DNA of 64,000 nt from a virus (Duplodnaviria; Caudoviricetes). Numbering within the stretch: position 1 is the stretch's first letter; every line of letters starts with the position of its first letter. The DNA lies in IMG/VR virus record IMGVR_UViG_3300021431_000076, positions 32,001 to 96,000 of that record; one strand, written 5' to 3'. A program made the position numbers and the translations under genes. The notes under the pieces are model-generated. The model saw only the letters and a list, made by a program, of their open reading frames with translations. It was not told the origin of the DNA and searched no databases. Below are positions 47,638-54,052 of the stretch, piece after piece.

Positions 47638-49914
47638 TTATTCATCTAATCTATGCTTCTCGTATCCTTTAGGTCTTAAAGCATCCATGAAAGCTTTACT
47701 ATCAACAATCTCAGGATGACCAGGAACAACCCACATTACTGGACTAGTTCCTTCAGGAACAATCTTCTCATGACACTTATCCCATACTTCATGATCTACA
47801 TTCATATATTTTACAGGTTTATGCATATAGAATGGATCGAAGCAAGAAGTCTTAGTCTTCTTATAAGTCATGGGTTTATGAAGAGCTCTAGCAATATCCT
47901 GATATTTGAGAGATACTATAACAGATCTATTGTTAGACAAAGCTTCCTTAAGAGTTAATACTTCATAAGGCTCATTGTATCTACTCCAATCAGGCATCTC
48001 AAATCTATCATAAGCACTTCTAATCTGATTTGCTATAATGATTTCAAGATGTACAGAACGACAGTGAATCTTCCCTCTAATAACAGCATCAACAAGCTTC
48101 ATAATAAGCTCATCAATATTATACTGCTTAGTTATATCTTTCTTATCAATAAGATCAGTAAAGATATCCAATGCTTTACCAAGGTCATTATTCATCATCT
48201 TAAGATAGAACAGCTCCATATCTTGAAGTTCCATTAATGGAATTTCTAATACAGATTCGCTAAGATTATCTTCAGTTTCAGGAGAATCTTTAAGTTTATC
48301 TCTAATTATAGCAGTAAGAGCATTAGAGAAATACATTCTAGCTTTAGTATCATCCCCAGATTCCTTATCTATAATAGAAGATATAGCATATTCAGTTCCA
48401 TCAGGAGACTTGATAGTCATATCAGTGATATACTCATTATAGATCTCTGCTGTATCATCAGTAGTATCAAACTGACCATTGGAATAGAAGATATGCTTAA
48501 AGAAGTCACCATCATTCTCAAGCTGTACATCTTCACCCTTAATGATTAAACTCCATCCATCAAGACTTTCTATAGTCGGGAAAGTTTCATCATTAAGAAG
48601 AATAGCATTAGTATCTACTCTGAAGAACTTATAGAAATCCAATACCCAATTGATTGCTCTAATAACTGTCTCTAACAGATGCTTAGCAGACAATCTCATC
48701 TGAGTATACTGAGATGTGATTATCTCTGTAGCAATACGACCAACATTTATATCTCTATTGGTTCTTGCTAACTCACCATAACAATGTCTACAAATACCTT
48801 TACCCATAGCAAAAGATTTGCACATAGCAGGAGTTCTAAGGTAAATCCACTTACCTATAAGATTAGTACAATCTTTAGTAATCAAGAACTCAAAGCCATT
48901 TAATTCCATACGAGCATATCTATCAATGAAATGCTCTAACACTTCTTTATCTTTAATAAAGATATGAGCAAGATTATTTGTATGACAGTCATAATCCATA
49001 TCTGGATTTAAGAAAGTATCAATATTATTCAGACCTAAGATACGAGAGAATCCACCAGAGTCTCCTACATTCTTCTTAGAGATAATCTGTGCATTTCTTG
49101 CAGAATAAGCATCAATGTAGAAATACAGGAGATTGTCAAGACCACCAGTGATATAGGAAGTATTTACAATATCATGCAAGATACTACCATGACCATCAGG
49201 TTTGGTACCAATATTAAATGAATTTTCTTTCCATTGACGTTTATTGATACCTTCTTTAGCAGCAAATGGATTTCTTAAGCAATGTTCATGTCCCATGATT
49301 TTCTTAGAATCCATAAGCAATTCTATAGCTCTATCTGCTGCTTCCAAACCTCTATCTTTTACTTCTTCTAGAGGTATATTAGAATAGTCTTTATGAATCA
49401 AGTCATCATATTCAGGACAAGCATCCATCATCTCTATAGTATCTTCCAGATTCAATGTATTAGCAATATAGAAAGAAAAATCATCCACATCAAGGAAATT
49501 ATAGAGACAATCTGCTATGATATTATTCATAAGCACATTGTCCATATTCTCTCTTCGTTCTGTGATAAAATGTTTGTCAATAAATTTCTTGATATGACCA
49601 CTATTAGTATGCTTAGCAAATACTAAATGCCATGGCTTAATCTCTCTATCTCCATTGGCAATAATAGCATACCAGAGTATAATATTAAAAAAGTAATCGG
49701 TGATGCTAAGATCAACAGAATCTCCATTACCGAAATCAACGGTAATGAACATATGTTGTACATAGTCAGTCTCAATTCCATCCTTCATAATACTGAGAAT
49801 TCCATCATAATGGTTTCTCCAATTCTCTATGACTATATCTTTTGTATGAATAGTCATCTTTTGTTTTTGAACCAGCTCAGTGTACACATAGTAGTTGTTC
49901 AGATTCTCCAACAT
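47638..49914 (-). CDS. rpoC: RNA polymerase beta' C-terminal-half subunit (non-virion RNAP)
   Basis: Bridge helix (VGDSGGFSR), Zn site (LRTPAMC...GICRHCYG), trigger loop (TQMRLSAKH) and HLEIII; early promoter at 50016. Confidence 0.9.
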   Translation of the reverse strand: MLENLNNYYVYTELVQKQKMTIHTKDIVIENWRNHYDGILSIMKDGIETDYVQHMFITVDFGNGDSVDLSITDYFFNIILWYAIIANGDREIKPWHLVFAKHTNSGHIKKFIDKHFITERRENMDNVLMNNIIADCLYNFLDVDDFSFYIANTLNLEDTIEMMDACPEYDDLIHKDYSNIPLEEVKDRGLEAADRAIELLMDSKKIMGHEHCLRNPFAAKEGINKRQWKENSFNIGTKPDGHGSILHDIVNTSYITGGLDNLLYFYIDAYSARNAQIISKKNVGDSGGFSRILGLNNIDTFLNPDMDYDCHTNNLAHIFIKDKEVLEHFIDRYARMELNGFEFLITKDCTNLIGKWIYLRTPAMCKSFAMGKGICRHCYGELARTNRDINVGRIATEIITSQYTQMRLSAKHLLETVIRAINWVLDFYKFFRVDTNAILLNDETFPTIESLDGWSLIIKGEDVQLENDGDFFKHIFYSNGQFDTTDDTAEIYNEYITDMTIKSPDGTEYAISSIIDKESGDDTKARMYFSNALTAIIRDKLKDSPETEDNLSESVLEIPLMELQDMELFYLKMMNNDLGKALDIFTDLIDKKDITKQYNIDELIMKLVDAVIRGKIHCRSVHLEIIIANQIRSAYDRFEMPDWSRYNEPYEVLTLKEALSNNRSVIVSLKYQDIARALHKPMTYKKTKTSCFDPFYMHKPVKYMNVDHEVWDKCHEKIVPEGTSPVMWVVPGHPEIVDSKAFMDALRPKGYEKHRLDE

Positions 49915-50043
49915 GCTGTTTCCTCTCCTTTAGAAAAAATTCATAAAATACCCTTATTGATATAATGTGCTGAAAGGTATTAAAAGTTATTATCCTTTCC
50001 TCCTTTCTCATTTATATAGTATATCTCTGTTTTTTAGTTTACC

Positions 50044-50212
50044 AAAAAAAATGAACTTCCTTGTTCATTTTATCTAAATGATATAGTGACGAGTATATTG
50101 CAAGCTGATTTTTTTTGAGTGTTTTTTATGGCAAGATATATATTATTGGCTACACATATATCTTAGTTATTGAAGGGATTATAGGTGGGTGTCATCCTTG
50201 ACTCACTATATC
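50044..50212 (-). ncRNA. Candidate early multi-stem small RNA with two CANGGANG hairpin loops
   Basis: Early promoter at 50219-50226; 10-bp closing stem 50203-50212/50080-50089; internal hairpins; terminator at 50044-50071; no ORF. Confidence 0.6.
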
Positions 50213-50257
50213 ATTATAATAATATATAATTGAAAAATTTTTTACTTAAACAATATT

Positions 50258-50400
50258 GCACCAGTAGAGTCAACAGACTCTACTGGTTAGAGGTTTGTAG
50301 TAAAAGAAAGCAGAATTAAGATGAGAACTGAAAGGTCATATACTTATAGGGGAAAGTACATGATAAGAAGTATAATAGTTAGGGGTCTATCATCTTCTTT
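50258..50400 (-). ncRNA. Candidate late small RNA with several C/U-rich motifs
   Basis: TACA-tctaaa-TA promoter at 50400-50411; closing stem AAGAUGA/UCAUCUU; CCCCU, UUCCCCU and CCUUUC; terminator hairpin at 50261-50286. Confidence 0.5.
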
Positions 50401-50448
50401 ATTTAGATGTAAAAACCTCTCTAGGGATTTCTCCCTAGAGAGTTTATT

Positions 50449-50925
50449 TTAACGAACAACTTTAGTCATATCAAATGCTCTTGGAGAGAGCTTAATGAGT
50501 TTCTGTTGTGCTTTCTTAGCATCTCTACGAACCATGTTATTGTACTTCTTATAAATTCTATCAAGTAACTGACGTTCCTTAATACGATTCTTTCTAAGAA
50601 GTTCAAAGTCATTATCGCCTTTTTCACGAGCCATTTGCATTGATGCAAGCATAATACGACGATCAAGGTCAGCCTGTTTGCTCATACGAACAATAGCTTT
50701 ACGACCAACTACACCTGCTTCTTCTAAATATTTAAATTCATCAGAATTTAGATATTCATTTCTTTCAGCTTCATTCATAGATGCTACTCTATCTACAATC
50801 AAAGCTTCTAAGAAAGCAGCAGTATCAGTAATACCTTCTCCACCTTCTACGTTTTCATAAGTTTCATCCAGACTATCTACTGTCTGGAGATCTGCACTTT
50901 CATCAAGATTTCTAAATAATGGCAT
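50449..50925 (-). CDS. Probable internal head protein (acidic N-terminus, basic C-terminus)
   Basis: Late promoter at 50983-50994; LDES/LEEA protease-site-like motifs. Confidence 0.6.
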   Translation of the reverse strand: MPLFRNLDESADLQTVDSLDETYENVEGGEGITDTAAFLEALIVDRVASMNEAERNEYLNSDEFKYLEEAGVVGRKAIVRMSKQADLDRRIMLASMQMAREKGDNDFELLRKNRIKERQLLDRIYKKYNNMVRRDAKKAQQKLIKLSPRAFDMTKVVR

Positions 50926-51046
50926 TGTTAATTACCTCCTATATAGGAATTATTTGCTATAGCAAACACAAGTATAGTGTTTTATTGTAATGTTTTAGAA
51001 AGAAAGTTGTAGAGTAAAAAATTTTTTAGATATATATTATTTTATT

Positions 51047-51134
51047 GAGTAGCAAAGAGAGATGGTAAGAGGTAGAGGCAACCACCTCTCTACTCCTATC
51101 AACTTTACATACACACTCCTCTACCTCTTTTTTT
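51047..51134 (+). promoter_or_regulatory. Structured leader (pseudoknot or terminator/antiterminator) before the DNA polymerase operon
   Basis: Stem 51047-51066/51081-51095; its loop AAGAGGTAGAGG (51067-51078) is complementary to CCTCTACCTCTT (51118-51129), which is followed by a T-run. Confidence 0.6.
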
Positions 51135-51199
51135 AATAAACCATGATTTTCACACTAAGAGTAAGAAGCAGAATTTATCTGAACAAGGAGAATAAAATC

Positions 51200-51529
51200 A
51201 TGGTCTATTATTATGCTGAAAAGATAGATAATATTGTTTTAGTTACAGAATTCGTATTATCTGCTAAATCCAGTTCTTCTAAATCTTATGCTTATTATGA
51301 TAACCGTAGGTTATTATTTGAAGAAACTTTAGTATCCTCTATTAAAAATAATAAAATAGAAAGTGTGGTGAATGATATTCTTAAAAGACTTATTAAGAGG
51401 ATACTGAATGAAACCAATAAAACTTTTATTAGTGATGAATTGGTGAATAAACTGAGATGCTATATTTTAGAGACATTAGAAACAGAATTGGAGGAGAATA
51501 AACAATGGATGAAAAAGAAATCAATATAA
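51200..51529 (+). CDS. Hypothetical protein
   Basis: Start at MVYYYAEK behind AAGGAG. Confidence 0.6.
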   Translation: MVYYYAEKIDNIVLVTEFVLSAKSSSSKSYAYYDNRRLLFEETLVSSIKNNKIESVVNDILKRLIKRILNETNKTFISDELVNKLRCYILETLETELEENKQWMKKKSI

Positions 51530-51855
51530 TCACTGGTTTTAAGGCTTTCCCAAGATTACATTTATATATGCAGACACATAGAAAGATGTGTAATGACTGT
51601 CATGTAGACTTTTTCATCATATTGAAGAATGAAAAGAGATTTCTTCACAGATTCTATTTAGTAGATGCCCTAGGATTAGGAAGATATGATCCTAATAAAC
51701 TTAAGAAGTTTATTAATTGGACTAAGGATAGTATGGTTAAGTATACTGAAACAATGTTATCGAAGAGTTCAGTCGAATTAAACTCCCAAGCATGGGATAA
51801 CATTAGTATGACCTATTATGAGGTTATATCTAAAATATGTGAGGAGAATAAGTAA
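51505..51855 (+). CDS. Hypothetical protein
   Basis: GGAGGAG RBS; coupled to the polymerase gene. Confidence 0.6.
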   Translation: MDEKEINIITGFKAFPRLHLYMQTHRKMCNDCHVDFFIILKNEKRFLHRFYLVDALGLGRYDPNKLKKFINWTKDSMVKYTETMLSKSSVELNSQAWDNISMTYYEVISKICEENK

Positions 51856-53979
51856 ATGAATGAGGAAGTAGAATGGAAAGTTTATGAGAACACACCCAAA
51901 GGGGAATTTATTGATCGGTATAGAAAAGATATGTATGAGATATTACATAGATCTCTTCCATTACTTCAACCATTTGAGTTAGAAGAAGGGATAAACTATT
52001 CGATCAATAAATCATATCAAGGACACAATGTAGTTATAGATAATAACTATACTAAACGAAAAGCTGAAATTGACCTATTAGATTTGGGAAATCAACTCCT
52101 AGAAGGTAAGTATATAATGACTACCTCAGGAGTTTTGTTTCAGAAACATGATATGGTCAAGAATCCTTTTTATAACTTCATCCAATATTTAGTAGATAAA
52201 CGAGATGAAGCTAAGGAAAAGATGAAGACAGCTCCTGGAGGAAAAGGAAGCGAAGAATGGAAAAAGTATAACCTACAACAGCTGAACTATAAAACTTCAT
52301 GTAATGCACTTTATGGTTGCGCTGGTAATTGGAGTTCTGTATTCTATAATCTATTCTTGGCTACAGCAGTAACAGGTCAAGGAAGAGGATGTATATCAGC
52401 TTCTATAACCATGTTTGAAGGATTCTTGGCAAACAATGTTAAGTTCCATAATCTTAATGAAGTTCATACATTTATGAACAATATTTGTCAAGATCAGAAG
52501 AAACCAGAAATGCACAAATTCTATGATTATGATTGGTTGGATAGAAATGTAACTATAGAAGAAGCATTCTTAAAGATAATTCATAATTGTGATTGGCCAT
52601 TCTCTGATCTAGCAAAGAAACAGATATGGAATTACATGAATAATTTATCTCAAAGAGAACTGAATGTAATCTATTATAAGAACAATCTATATGAATTCTG
52701 TAAGAATAAAAGAGTTGTGGATTTGATCATGACTATTCTTACTAAACTTAATTCTCCATTCCTAGATCCTAATAAACCGAATGAAGAGGTTAAAGAAGAA
52801 CTAGAATTATTAAAAGAACTCTTGTTTGAGTATGTTTATTATCGTCATTTATGGATAGATAAACTTGATAGAGTTTATACTATGATGAGAGATGTTGTTC
52901 TTATAACAGATACAGATTCTTGTATTGTATCTCTAGATGAATGGTATAAATTTGTTAAGCAATATACCATTGGAGTTCCAATGACTATCAAGTATACTTA
53001 TGAAGAAATTAAGGAACATGAAAATAGAGTTATACTTGAGATGAAGAAAGCTGAGAGAGTAAATGAGTATGATTTCTATAATGATAAACTAGTAGAAGCT
53101 AAGAGACTTAAATATCCTACAGTTGTCATTGAAGAAGATAATCTTAGATACTCTATAATCAATATAATGAGTTATATTGTATCTCAGCTTATATTGGATT
53201 ACATGGTATTATTTAGTGAGAACTATAATACCTATGCTCCAAATAGAGAATGTCTCTTAATAATGAAAAATGAGTTCTTATTTAAATCAATGCTAATTAC
53301 ATCTGGTAAGAAGAATTATACTTCTCTTCAGCTAATACAAGAAGGAAAATGGATACCAGAAGATAAACAATTTGATATCAAAGGAATGCCAATCGATAAA
53401 GTAGGTATACCAGAATCTACTGCACAAAGATTGAAGAATATATTGGAATACAATATCCTTAGAACAGACTTTGTTGATCAAGTAGACATAATCAAATCTT
53501 TAGCAGCACTAGAAAAAGAGATTTATATATCTCTAGCAAATGGTGATAAAACTTATTATAAACCTGCTAGAATAAAATCTATGGGTTATTATGATAATCC
53601 ATTTATCATTCAAGGTATCAAAGCATCAATAGCGTATAATGAAATTAAGTCTAAAGACGAGGAAGCCATAGACTTAAACGAAAGAAATACTGTTTTGATA
53701 ATCAAAGTAGTACTAAATAAGAAGAATGCTGATAAGATTGCAAAAGATTTTCCAGAGCATTATATAAGATTAGCTAAGTTATTAGAAAGAAAAGAATTTA
53801 AGAATGGTCTTACTTCTATAGCTATTCCATTTAATGTTCCTACTCCTAAATGGGTTGTTCCTTTCATTGATTATACTACTATAATCCAAGATAATATTAA
53901 AGTATTTCCAGTAGAAGAACTTGGTATTAGTAGAGAAAACAATGCTACGGTTACTCATTCTAATATTGTTACTTTCTAA
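51856..53979 (+). CDS. polB: Family B DNA polymerase, C-terminal part (motifs B and C, thumb)
   Basis: QLNYKTSCNALYG, VTGQGR, TDTDS, KKNY and IKG motifs. Confidence 0.9.
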   Translation: MNEEVEWKVYENTPKGEFIDRYRKDMYEILHRSLPLLQPFELEEGINYSINKSYQGHNVVIDNNYTKRKAEIDLLDLGNQLLEGKYIMTTSGVLFQKHDMVKNPFYNFIQYLVDKRDEAKEKMKTAPGGKGSEEWKKYNLQQLNYKTSCNALYGCAGNWSSVFYNLFLATAVTGQGRGCISASITMFEGFLANNVKFHNLNEVHTFMNNICQDQKKPEMHKFYDYDWLDRNVTIEEAFLKIIHNCDWPFSDLAKKQIWNYMNNLSQRELNVIYYKNNLYEFCKNKRVVDLIMTILTKLNSPFLDPNKPNEEVKEELELLKELLFEYVYYRHLWIDKLDRVYTMMRDVVLITDTDSCIVSLDEWYKFVKQYTIGVPMTIKYTYEEIKEHENRVILEMKKAERVNEYDFYNDKLVEAKRLKYPTVVIEEDNLRYSIINIMSYIVSQLILDYMVLFSENYNTYAPNRECLLIMKNEFLFKSMLITSGKKNYTSLQLIQEGKWIPEDKQFDIKGMPIDKVGIPESTAQRLKNILEYNILRTDFVDQVDIIKSLAALEKEIYISLANGDKTYYKPARIKSMGYYDNPFIIQGIKASIAYNEIKSKDEEAIDLNERNTVLIIKVVLNKKNADKIAKDFPEHYIRLAKLLERKEFKNGLTSIAIPFNVPTPKWVVPFIDYTTIIQDNIKVFPVEELGISRENNATVTHSNIVTF

Positions 53980-54052
53980 TACAATTACCCTAGGAGATTG
54001 AATTCTCCTAGGGTAAATTTATTTTTAGTAATATACTATTTATAAGAAGGAG

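Follow-up and report, generated by a model that had tools for sequence, protein, structure and literature searches.

Introduction

The DNA polymerase operon of an uncultivated jumbo phage begins with a leader whose RNA can pair with itself in several ways, and the question raised by this locus is whether these pairings are genuine and, if so, whether they act on transcription, on translation or on the life of the message. A sequence-only reading of the locus had described a pseudoknot, or a pair of mutually exclusive folds, at the head of the operon and had suggested either an attenuator or a released RNA of 88 nt. Here, we analysed the leader in a window of 64,000 nucleotides, which is the whole stretch of DNA under study (bases 32001-96000 of an IMG/VR virus record that is 332,775 bp long and has a G+C content of 31%), together with the leaders of related phages. 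Positions are those of the window unless they are given as genome positions. The observation turned out to be real and non-random, and structures of the leader RNA are evolutionarily maintained.

Results

The phage and its replication operon

The source genome encodes beta-like and beta'-like pieces of RNA polymerase, and no sigma factor was found among its genes. Because of this combination, the phage is assigned to the phiKZ/AR9-type jumbo phages, as an uncultivated member of ~333 kb. The leader sits in a divergent intergenic region (50926-51199), with a 158-aa gene on the minus strand (50449-50925) as its left neighbor. The genes that matter here are as follows.

47638-49914, minus strand: RNAP-beta-like gene, 758 aa
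51200-53979, plus strand: ORF109-ORF116-polymerase operon, delimited by the ORF list and the terminator at 53985-54016
51200-51529, plus strand: ORF109
51505-51855, plus strand: ORF116
51856-53979, plus strand: divergent part of a family-B DNA polymerase, 707 aa (PF20286, PF00136, phrog_2927)
53985-54016: canonical hairpin terminator after the polymerase gene

Beyond this terminator a fresh early promoter follows (TSS 54046), so that ORF109, ORF116 and the polymerase gene can be taken as one unit, and the earlier statement that the operon ends in the polymerase is correct. The further suggestion that the leader balances the two halves of the polymerase found no footing, since nothing links the leader element to such a role.

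ORF109 and ORF116 are both conserved. Searches against Pfam and PHROG matched neither of them to a family, and no recognisable nucleic-acid-binding family or fold was found in either. Their AF2 models are confident; Foldseek returned no match at E <=0.001, and VIA Z scores (<=7.8) stayed within noise. A weak likeness of the models to Pur-alpha (prob 0.89 / Z 5.3) was not relied on, and a profile comparison between ORF109 and ORF116 detected no similarity. The two reading frames overlap by 25 nt, both AF2 models display the same topology of four strands and two helices, and ORF116 carries conserved CxxC, His and Cys residues.

An early promoter upstream of a long leader

The early promoter of phage AR9 has been defined experimentally as AAATATATATTAT-(6N)-G+1 and is read by the virion RNA polymerase (PMC5312081). 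The leader is preceded by an exact fit to this consensus.

51013-51046, plus strand: AR9-type early (virion RNA polymerase) promoter with the core AGATATATATTAT at 51028-40, followed by 6 nt and the TSS G51047

By this consensus G51047 would be +1, in agreement with the start site that had been predicted before. The promoter motif is ~40 nt long and occurs at no fewer than 36 sites in the genome as well as in related phages. Promoters of this class share a conserved motif in the initially transcribed sequence, and the GAGTAG that opens the leader belongs to it. Taken together, the sequence supports a transcribed leader behind a real phage promoter. From the TSS to the first ORF the leader measures 153 nt; among 92 early-type units, about four in five fall below this length, which places the leader in the long tail of their distribution. 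Several other long early leaders in the genome also begin with a hairpin at +1.

Between the U-run described below and the ATG, no second early promoter was detected by PWM and no canonical late promoter was found; immediately behind the U-run, 10 of 15 positions agree with the upstream half of the early motif, and the motif core is absent. Scans of the leader site for a sigma-70-type promoter or a canonical terminator also found none. One candidate late promoter, CACA-N6-TA at 51112-23, was rejected because relatives do not conserve the motif. On the other side of the intergenic region, a late-type motif (AACA-TTACAA-TAA, window ~50994-51006, minus strand) belongs to the divergent 158-aa gene, and the region as a whole thus has a late promoter for the leftward direction and an early promoter for the rightward one.

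Related leaders share one layout

Only one close phage was present in IMG/VR (L002, with a polymerase 94% identical). In a large protein collection, 14 homologues of ORF109 were found at 74-99% identity, and upstream DNA could be read from 11 contigs carrying such homologues. The window, L002 and the contigs gave 12 distinct leaders, after L068 (leader identical to the window) and L067 (truncated at the 5' side) had been left out. All 12 share a common layout, consisting of an early promoter, a structured segment of 83-102 nt ending in 6-7 T, a conserved block, an SD and the ATG.

The leaders fall into three groups. Group A comprises the window, L002, L061, L060 and L063, with L068 matching the window across the leader; here the arms of the 5' hairpin (S1) change in sequence and length with complementarity kept, and no change is seen in the loop core AAGAGGUAGAG or in CUCUACCUCUU, the tract that precedes the U-run. 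Group B is L064, in which the extreme 5' end forms 16 bp, 2 of them G.U, with a CU tract of different sequence (-20.8 kcal/mol); this helix is nested around an inner hairpin, ends at the U-run and was matched by none of 200 shuffles. Group C consists of six contigs with a 22-bp 5' hairpin (-32 kcal/mol), ~30 unpaired nt and then the U-run, and no partner for the tract before the U-run was found in any of the six leaders.

Other searches added no relatives to this set. Blastn against 50,697 phage records yielded no match; a pattern search of IMG/VR with the conserved block gave nothing beyond the relative already known and a chance match in a coding repeat (L073); and protein-based scans of IMG/VR and JGI metagenome contigs recovered only the L002 phage, the remaining relatives having come from the large protein collection. 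A covariance-model scan with Rfam 15 over 50000-52500 at E <=10 gave only chance miRNA and snoRNA rows and nothing relevant.

Two side observations concern sequences of related phages. Just upstream of the early promoter, L060 (~1270-1310), L061 and L063 carry a 10-bp palindrome, AATAGATATC ... GATATCTATT, which is absent from the window. In the distant phages L003, L007 and L044 (~3900), whose polymerases are ~60% identical or less, the early promoter lies directly before the polymerase gene, with a short leader and no ORF109 or ORF116; in L007 the early TSS and the SD have AACA-N6-TA between them, a tandem early/late arrangement.

A covarying hairpin at the 5' end

The 5' end of the leader folds into a hairpin, S1.

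51047-51066, plus strand: S1 5' arm, pairing with 51081-95; the hairpin begins at +1
51067-51078, plus strand: S1 loop core and 5' arm of S2, GA-rich and SD-like (AAGAGGTAGAGG), the perfect complement of 51118-29
51081-51095, plus strand: S1 3' arm

Its three pairings, GAGTAG (51047-52) with CTACTC (51090-95), AGAG (51058-61) with CTCT (51086-89) and TGGT (51063-66) with ACCA (51081-84), are all present in the sequence as previously described, and so is the loop of 14 nt (51067-80); the hairpin as drawn has an energy of -13.0 kcal/mol. All 12 related leaders possess a 5' hairpin of this kind, with compensatory changes. Over these leaders 92.6% of S1 cells are paired, versus 34-47% with slid partners, and 9 pairs have changed on both sides; the covariation score was reached by none of 500 shuffles. 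RNAalifold recovered the basal S1 helix on the 12 leaders, the same alignment serving for both prediction and test. In a covariance model built to realign S1, the conserved loop and tail outweighed the rest, and no structural alignment was obtained for the window or L063.

In a chimera test the cognate S1 arms were best in 3 of 4 arm types; since 5' arms of the L002 type pair equally well with the L063 3' arm, the specificity of the arms is only moderate. Unconstrained MFE folding placed the loop core inside a hairpin loop of 15-16 nt in 4 of the 5 distinct close leaders. When both strands were folded, the plus strand of groups B and C came out 9-15 kcal/mol more stable than its complement owing to G.U pairs, in line with an RNA that makes use of such pairs; group A showed about equal stability for either strand.

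An invariant pairing between the loop and the tract before the U-run

The S1 loop has a complement further downstream, with which it can form a second helix, S2.

51096-51117, plus strand: variable spacer between S1 and the S2 3' arm
51118-51129, plus strand: S2 3' arm, CU-rich (CCTCTACCTCTT), containing the 11-mer CTCTACCTCTT that is invariant in 5 distinct leaders
51128-51134, plus strand: U7 run, immediately following the final G-C pair of S2 (51069/51127); predicted 3' ends ~51133-51137

The first 12 nt of the loop, AAGAGGTAGAGG (51067-78), and CCTCTACCTCTT (51118-29) are perfectly complementary, and the adjoining T-run consists of 7 T (51128-34), both as had been claimed. S2 alone has -16.7 kcal/mol over 12 bp including 6 G-C pairs. 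A perfect inverted repeat of at least 12 nt arose in only 2 of 3000 dinucleotide shuffles of 51047-51136 (chance p ~7e-4). In the 332,775-bp genome the S2 12-mer occurs at these two sites only, and with at most one mismatch it is met elsewhere at only a few sites inside coding sequence. The nested MFE of 51047-51140 (-19.8 kcal/mol, z = -2.1) is only modestly unusual and uses a different register of the GA-rich/CU-rich complementarity; the modest z-score arises because the GA-rich 5' half and the CU-rich 3' half allow several registers.

Five distinct leaders share the 11-mer AAGAGGTAGAG unchanged, each time in the S1 loop, and the S2 3' arm touches the U-run in every leader of group A. Across the five distinct leaders none of the 22 columns of the S2 arms varies, in contrast to 61 of 75 other leader columns (Fisher 1e-12) and, for comparison, 25 of 110 third-codon positions of ORF109. 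Between the two arms, 37 of 48 alignment columns vary among the 5 close relatives, with indels, and the gap between the arms is 39 nt in the window and 41-46 nt in relatives. The duplex of loop core and CU tract amounts to -17.5 to -20.3 kcal/mol. With both arms invariant, no covariation is possible for S2, and this invariance speaks neither for nor against its pairing; S1 does covary over the 12 leaders. Both helices have comparative support in the closest clade, and S2 is missing from 6 of the 12 leaders. The run of 6-7 T is kept in all 12 relatives; as group C retains it with no partner for the preceding tract, the U-run must have some reason for conservation that is independent of a hairpin.

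S2 displays part of the anatomy of an intrinsic terminator, with a stem containing G+C whose 3' arm runs straight into U7. It departs from the compact hairpin (loop ~3-8 nt) of such terminators, and the terminators scanned in this phage are themselves compact, with loops of 4-8 nt that are mostly tetraloops. As in an H-type pseudoknot, 12 of the 14 loop nucleotides are complementary to a downstream tract (51118-29), with the same arrangement in 4 further distinct leaders, and S1 and S2 occupy different nucleotides. The window leaves connectors of 0 and 2 nt, compared with 1-4 and 3 nt for its relatives. An S2 of 11-12 bp in a loop of 14-18 nt is sterically strained, as judged by reasoning on the geometry; because of these short connectors, competition between the top of S1 and full S2 appears likelier than a relaxed H-type knot. 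The earlier description as a pseudoknot or exclusive folds was fair, and of its two forms the competing folds are the one that we would favor. The conserved islands of the S2 arms, together with the helix reinvented in L064, argue for an RNA pairing that would close a stem at the U-run. The invariance of S2 exceeds what a plain terminator stem would need, which hints at a sequence-specific role.

Two smaller candidates in the leader were discarded. CTCCT does occur twice, at 51093-97 and 51116-20, as had been noticed; L002 does not conserve the pair, having lost the first copy and altered the second, and an anti-SD device made of them was rejected. A 24-codon ORF (51062-51139) was dismissed as a leader peptide, its ATG being ATA in L002.

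A helix over the ribosome-binding site and a late-promoter-like motif

The block immediately after the U-run, in the same leader but beyond the coordinates of the sequence-only reading, is conserved in 12 of 12 leaders, is unique in the genome and partly forms a third helix, S3.

51140-51151, plus strand: S3 5' arm, made of an anti-AUG (ACCAUG, 51140-45) and an anti-SD (AUUUUC, 51146-51), pairing with 51188-93 and 51199-204
51151-51165, plus strand: late-promoter-like CACA-N7-TAAG in the S3 loop, with the putative late TSS A51163
51185-51204, plus strand: SD AAGGAG (51185-90), start codon ATG (51200) and S3 3' arm (51188-93, 51199-204)

ACCAUG pairs with CAUGGU (51199-204) and AUUUUC with GAGAAU (51188-93), so that the AUG and half of the SD of ORF109 lie within the pairing. 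Across the 12 leaders 98% of S3 cells are paired; the pair 51145/51199 has changed on both sides, being G-C, A-U or G.U, whereas a second pair is U.G in some leaders and C-G in others, a one-sided improvement. Of 3000 shuffles, 10 produced a perfect inverted repeat of at least 11 nt, and the window also offers an alternative contiguous register, 51134-50 with 51194-210.

Within the loop motif, CACA (51151-54) and TAA (51162-64) are invariant in 12 of 12 relatives, and the 7 bases between them vary. The late motif of the phage, VACA-N6-TAA, shows an 8-11x enrichment in the regions before genes and is depleted within genes on either strand, and half of its copies in the genome are followed by an SD and a start codon. 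The motif in the S3 loop has a spacer of 7 nt versus 6 in the late motif, and the 7-nt spacing is not enriched upstream of genes in this phage; the mapped late promoters of AR9 include a few with 7-nt spacers (g074, g125). VACA-N7-TAA is also ~2.5x depleted in genes, on the sense strand only.

The layout recurs in the genome

The succession of an early promoter, a structured RNA of 55-110 nt, a U-run and a second (early or late) promoter is found again elsewhere in the genome.

Genome 277898, minus strand: early promoter, terminator, perfect late motif AACA-N6-TAAG and a 401-aa gene
Genome 270351 (plus strand), 177843 (minus strand) and 154940 (minus strand): further sites with this layout
Window 50212, minus strand (50009-50246, minus strand): neighbouring unit with this layout

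In addition, the genome contains other units that run from an early promoter to a terminator with no ORF, and early units of the phage end at a hairpin followed by a U-run. Strong termination at predicted terminators has been observed for the operons of AR9. Genome 154940 (minus strand) resembles L064 in that the extreme 5' end is paired with the sequence leading into the U-run.

Discussion

Starting from the observed promoter class, the conserved helices S1, S2 and S3 and the U-run, we infer the following course of events. The virion RNA polymerase would read the first ~88 nt of the leader from the AR9-type early promoter, and S1, a 5'-terminal hairpin of a kind common in the long early leaders of this phage, would form first and probably shield the 5' end of the RNA. 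The S1 loop would display the conserved GA-rich 11-12-mer, with which the emerging CU-rich tract at 51118-29 could pair to give S2, ending exactly at U7. Full S2 would compete with the top of S1, and termination would probably be partial. With a terminator or attenuator of this kind, an RNA of ~88-90 nt would be released and less early transcription would pass into the operon. In RNAs that pass the U-run, S3 would bury the SD and the AUG of ORF109 and might in this way mask translation, and the putative late-like promoter in the S3 loop could start transcripts that are free of the masking arm; a transcript from A51163 would escape S3 because the S3 5' arm would be missing from it.

Among the readings of the locus, we place first a promoter-proximal terminator or attenuator that would limit early read-through into the ORF109-ORF116-polymerase operon, with a likelihood that falls somewhat short of even. 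The complete scheme is a good deal more speculative, and we give it little credence as a whole: an RNA gate of two layers that rumen/gut AR9-like jumbo phages would place between the early and the late promoter heading the replication operon, with a loop-presented terminator that would release an ~88-nt early RNA and a helix masking the RBS that would be escaped only by transcripts from an internal late-type promoter. The ~88-nt RNA, with its SD-like loop and its CU tract resembling the 16S tail, may in addition act on ribosomes or on RBSs of the phage.

In one alternative the leader is a 5' UTR that does not terminate at all: every early transcript would read through, and S1, with or without an S2 pseudoknot, would protect the 5' end and set the half-life of the mRNA. 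The SD-like loop may then be a ribosome-binding stabiliser of the STAB-SD type, and the U-run a linker or the T-rich upstream part of a late-type promoter. Many other long-leader early promoters of this phage have 5'-terminal hairpins, group C is a hairpin with a U-run and no terminator helix, the loop core GAGG/GAGGU sits where the true SD lies in promoter copies with short leaders, T-rich tracts precede many late motifs, and the operon has no other recognised promoter of canonical form, all of which agrees with such a UTR. However, the exact loop complement before the U-run in five diverged leaders would be left unexplained, as would the reinvented helix of L064 that abuts the U-run, and hairpins that stabilise have no need of a downstream partner; we consider this reading unlikely, and second to the terminator or attenuator. 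Efficient termination at the U-run would suit an early small RNA gene, whose ~88-nt product would work in trans, for example via the SD-like loop or a CU tract similar to the 16S tail (UCACCUC, in 4 of 5 relatives), the operon being driven by the late-type promoter only. The strict invariance of both 11-mers suggests sequence-specific partners, ORF-less units from early promoter to terminator exist in the genome, and the late-like motif downstream is invariant. Yet the conserved 11-mers complement each other, so that a role in cis suffices; at up to one mismatch the genome offers no second copy of the 12-mer or obvious target, bar a few coding sites; group C lacks the terminator; and the N7 promoter is only putative, all of which makes a separate RNA gene improbable.

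An operator for autogenous control would require ORF109, ORF116 or the polymerase to bind S1/S2 or the S3 loop and repress its own synthesis. A structured 5' element and an occluded RBS at the head of a replication operon would fit the logic of T4 genes 32 and 43 by analogy, and the loop sequences are conserved; the absence of any recognisable nucleic-acid-binding family or fold from ORF109 and ORF116, and of likeness to any Rfam family from the leader, make it very unlikely. The invariance of the S2 arms could finally be read at the level of DNA, as inverted 11-bp copies, 52-57 bp apart from centre to centre, that bind a repressor or a roadblock protein: the Watson-Crick inverted repeat is perfect, its arms show invariance and not covariation, and both strands fold equally well in group A. 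Against this, in every case one of the copies is located in the apical loop of a covarying RNA hairpin and its partner directly adjoins the U-run, the distance between them varies by 5 bp, L064 swaps the pair for a helix that needs G.U pairs and hence exists in RNA only, and the motif occurs nowhere else in the genome; such a protein site is the least probable of the readings and hardly to be expected.

Gene control in phiKZ/AR9-like phages has so far been described almost wholly by the promoter classes of two phage RNA polymerases, and with a conserved structured leader the control of the replication operon would gain a further level made of RNA, namely a terminator-like element and a mask over the ribosome site, placed between an early and a late-type promoter. 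If the two-layer gate were true, cis-acting RNA structure would shape transcription by the virion RNA polymerase. The leader would also provide a mutable test object for whether the virion RNA polymerase obeys terminators made of hairpin and U-run and for how genes expressed 'continuously' are tuned. If the element only stabilises the mRNA, it would be an ordinary 5' UTR feature.

Comparison with known systems

The leader shares single features with several well-known regulatory RNAs. In T4, gp32 and gp43 repress their own synthesis via leader RNA, and these T4 elements act on translation only. Like the gene 32 pseudoknot and the gene 43 operator, the element described here is a structured RNA, possibly a pseudoknot, at the 5' end of a replication mRNA; unlike them, it abuts a U-run and is terminator-like. 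There is no homology, and the kinship with the T4 operators to which the sequence-only reading had appealed is not supported. Type III antitoxin RNAs of the ToxI kind, which it had also brought forward, do not fit either, as 50900-51300 contains no tandem repeats and no ToxN-like gene was found, ORF109 and ORF116 belonging to no Pfam or PHROG family.

Stem-loops at the 5' terminus and SD-like sequences close to it stabilise the mRNAs of ompA, aprE and cryIIIA (STAB-SD). S1 resembles them in starting at +1 to +3 and in having an SD-like loop, GAGG(U), with no start codon behind it, and differs in that this loop has a dedicated intramolecular complement beside the U-run; we know of no such loop complement next to a U-run in these stabilisers. 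A different parallel is offered by T4 gene e (lysozyme), gene 49 and I-TevI, in which the RBS is sequestered in early read-through RNA and a late promoter lies inside the hairpin. As in gene e, S3 buries an SD and an AUG, and a promoter-like motif, here a putative promoter, stands between its arms; there is no sequence relationship, and the cargo is a replication operon instead of a lysis or nuclease gene.

For the terminator-like part, the greA leader of E. coli is the closest model: an intrinsic terminator near the promoter gives rise to short RNAs, GraL, alongside a read-through mRNA (PMC2836576). The two have in common a strong promoter and a stem that abuts a U-run tens of nucleotides downstream, before the coding region, and by analogy short leader RNAs mixed with full mRNA would be the expected outcome here. 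In contrast to greA/GraL, the 5' arm of the terminator would be carried by the loop of a hairpin at the 5' terminus and separated from its partner by 39-46 nt, and the polymerase is presumably the multisubunit virion RNAP of the phage.

A parallel in gene arrangement is AR9 itself, whose DNA polymerase genes have an early and a late promoter in tandem and are 'continuously expressed' (PMC5312081). The work on AR9 describes no structured RNA or terminator between its two promoters (PMC5312081), and the phage studied here differs in a late-like spacer of 7 nt instead of 6 and in promoters that are predicted from sequence. Both phages share the same early consensus with its +1 G, a late-type ACA-N-TA downstream of it and a DNA polymerase gene as the cargo.
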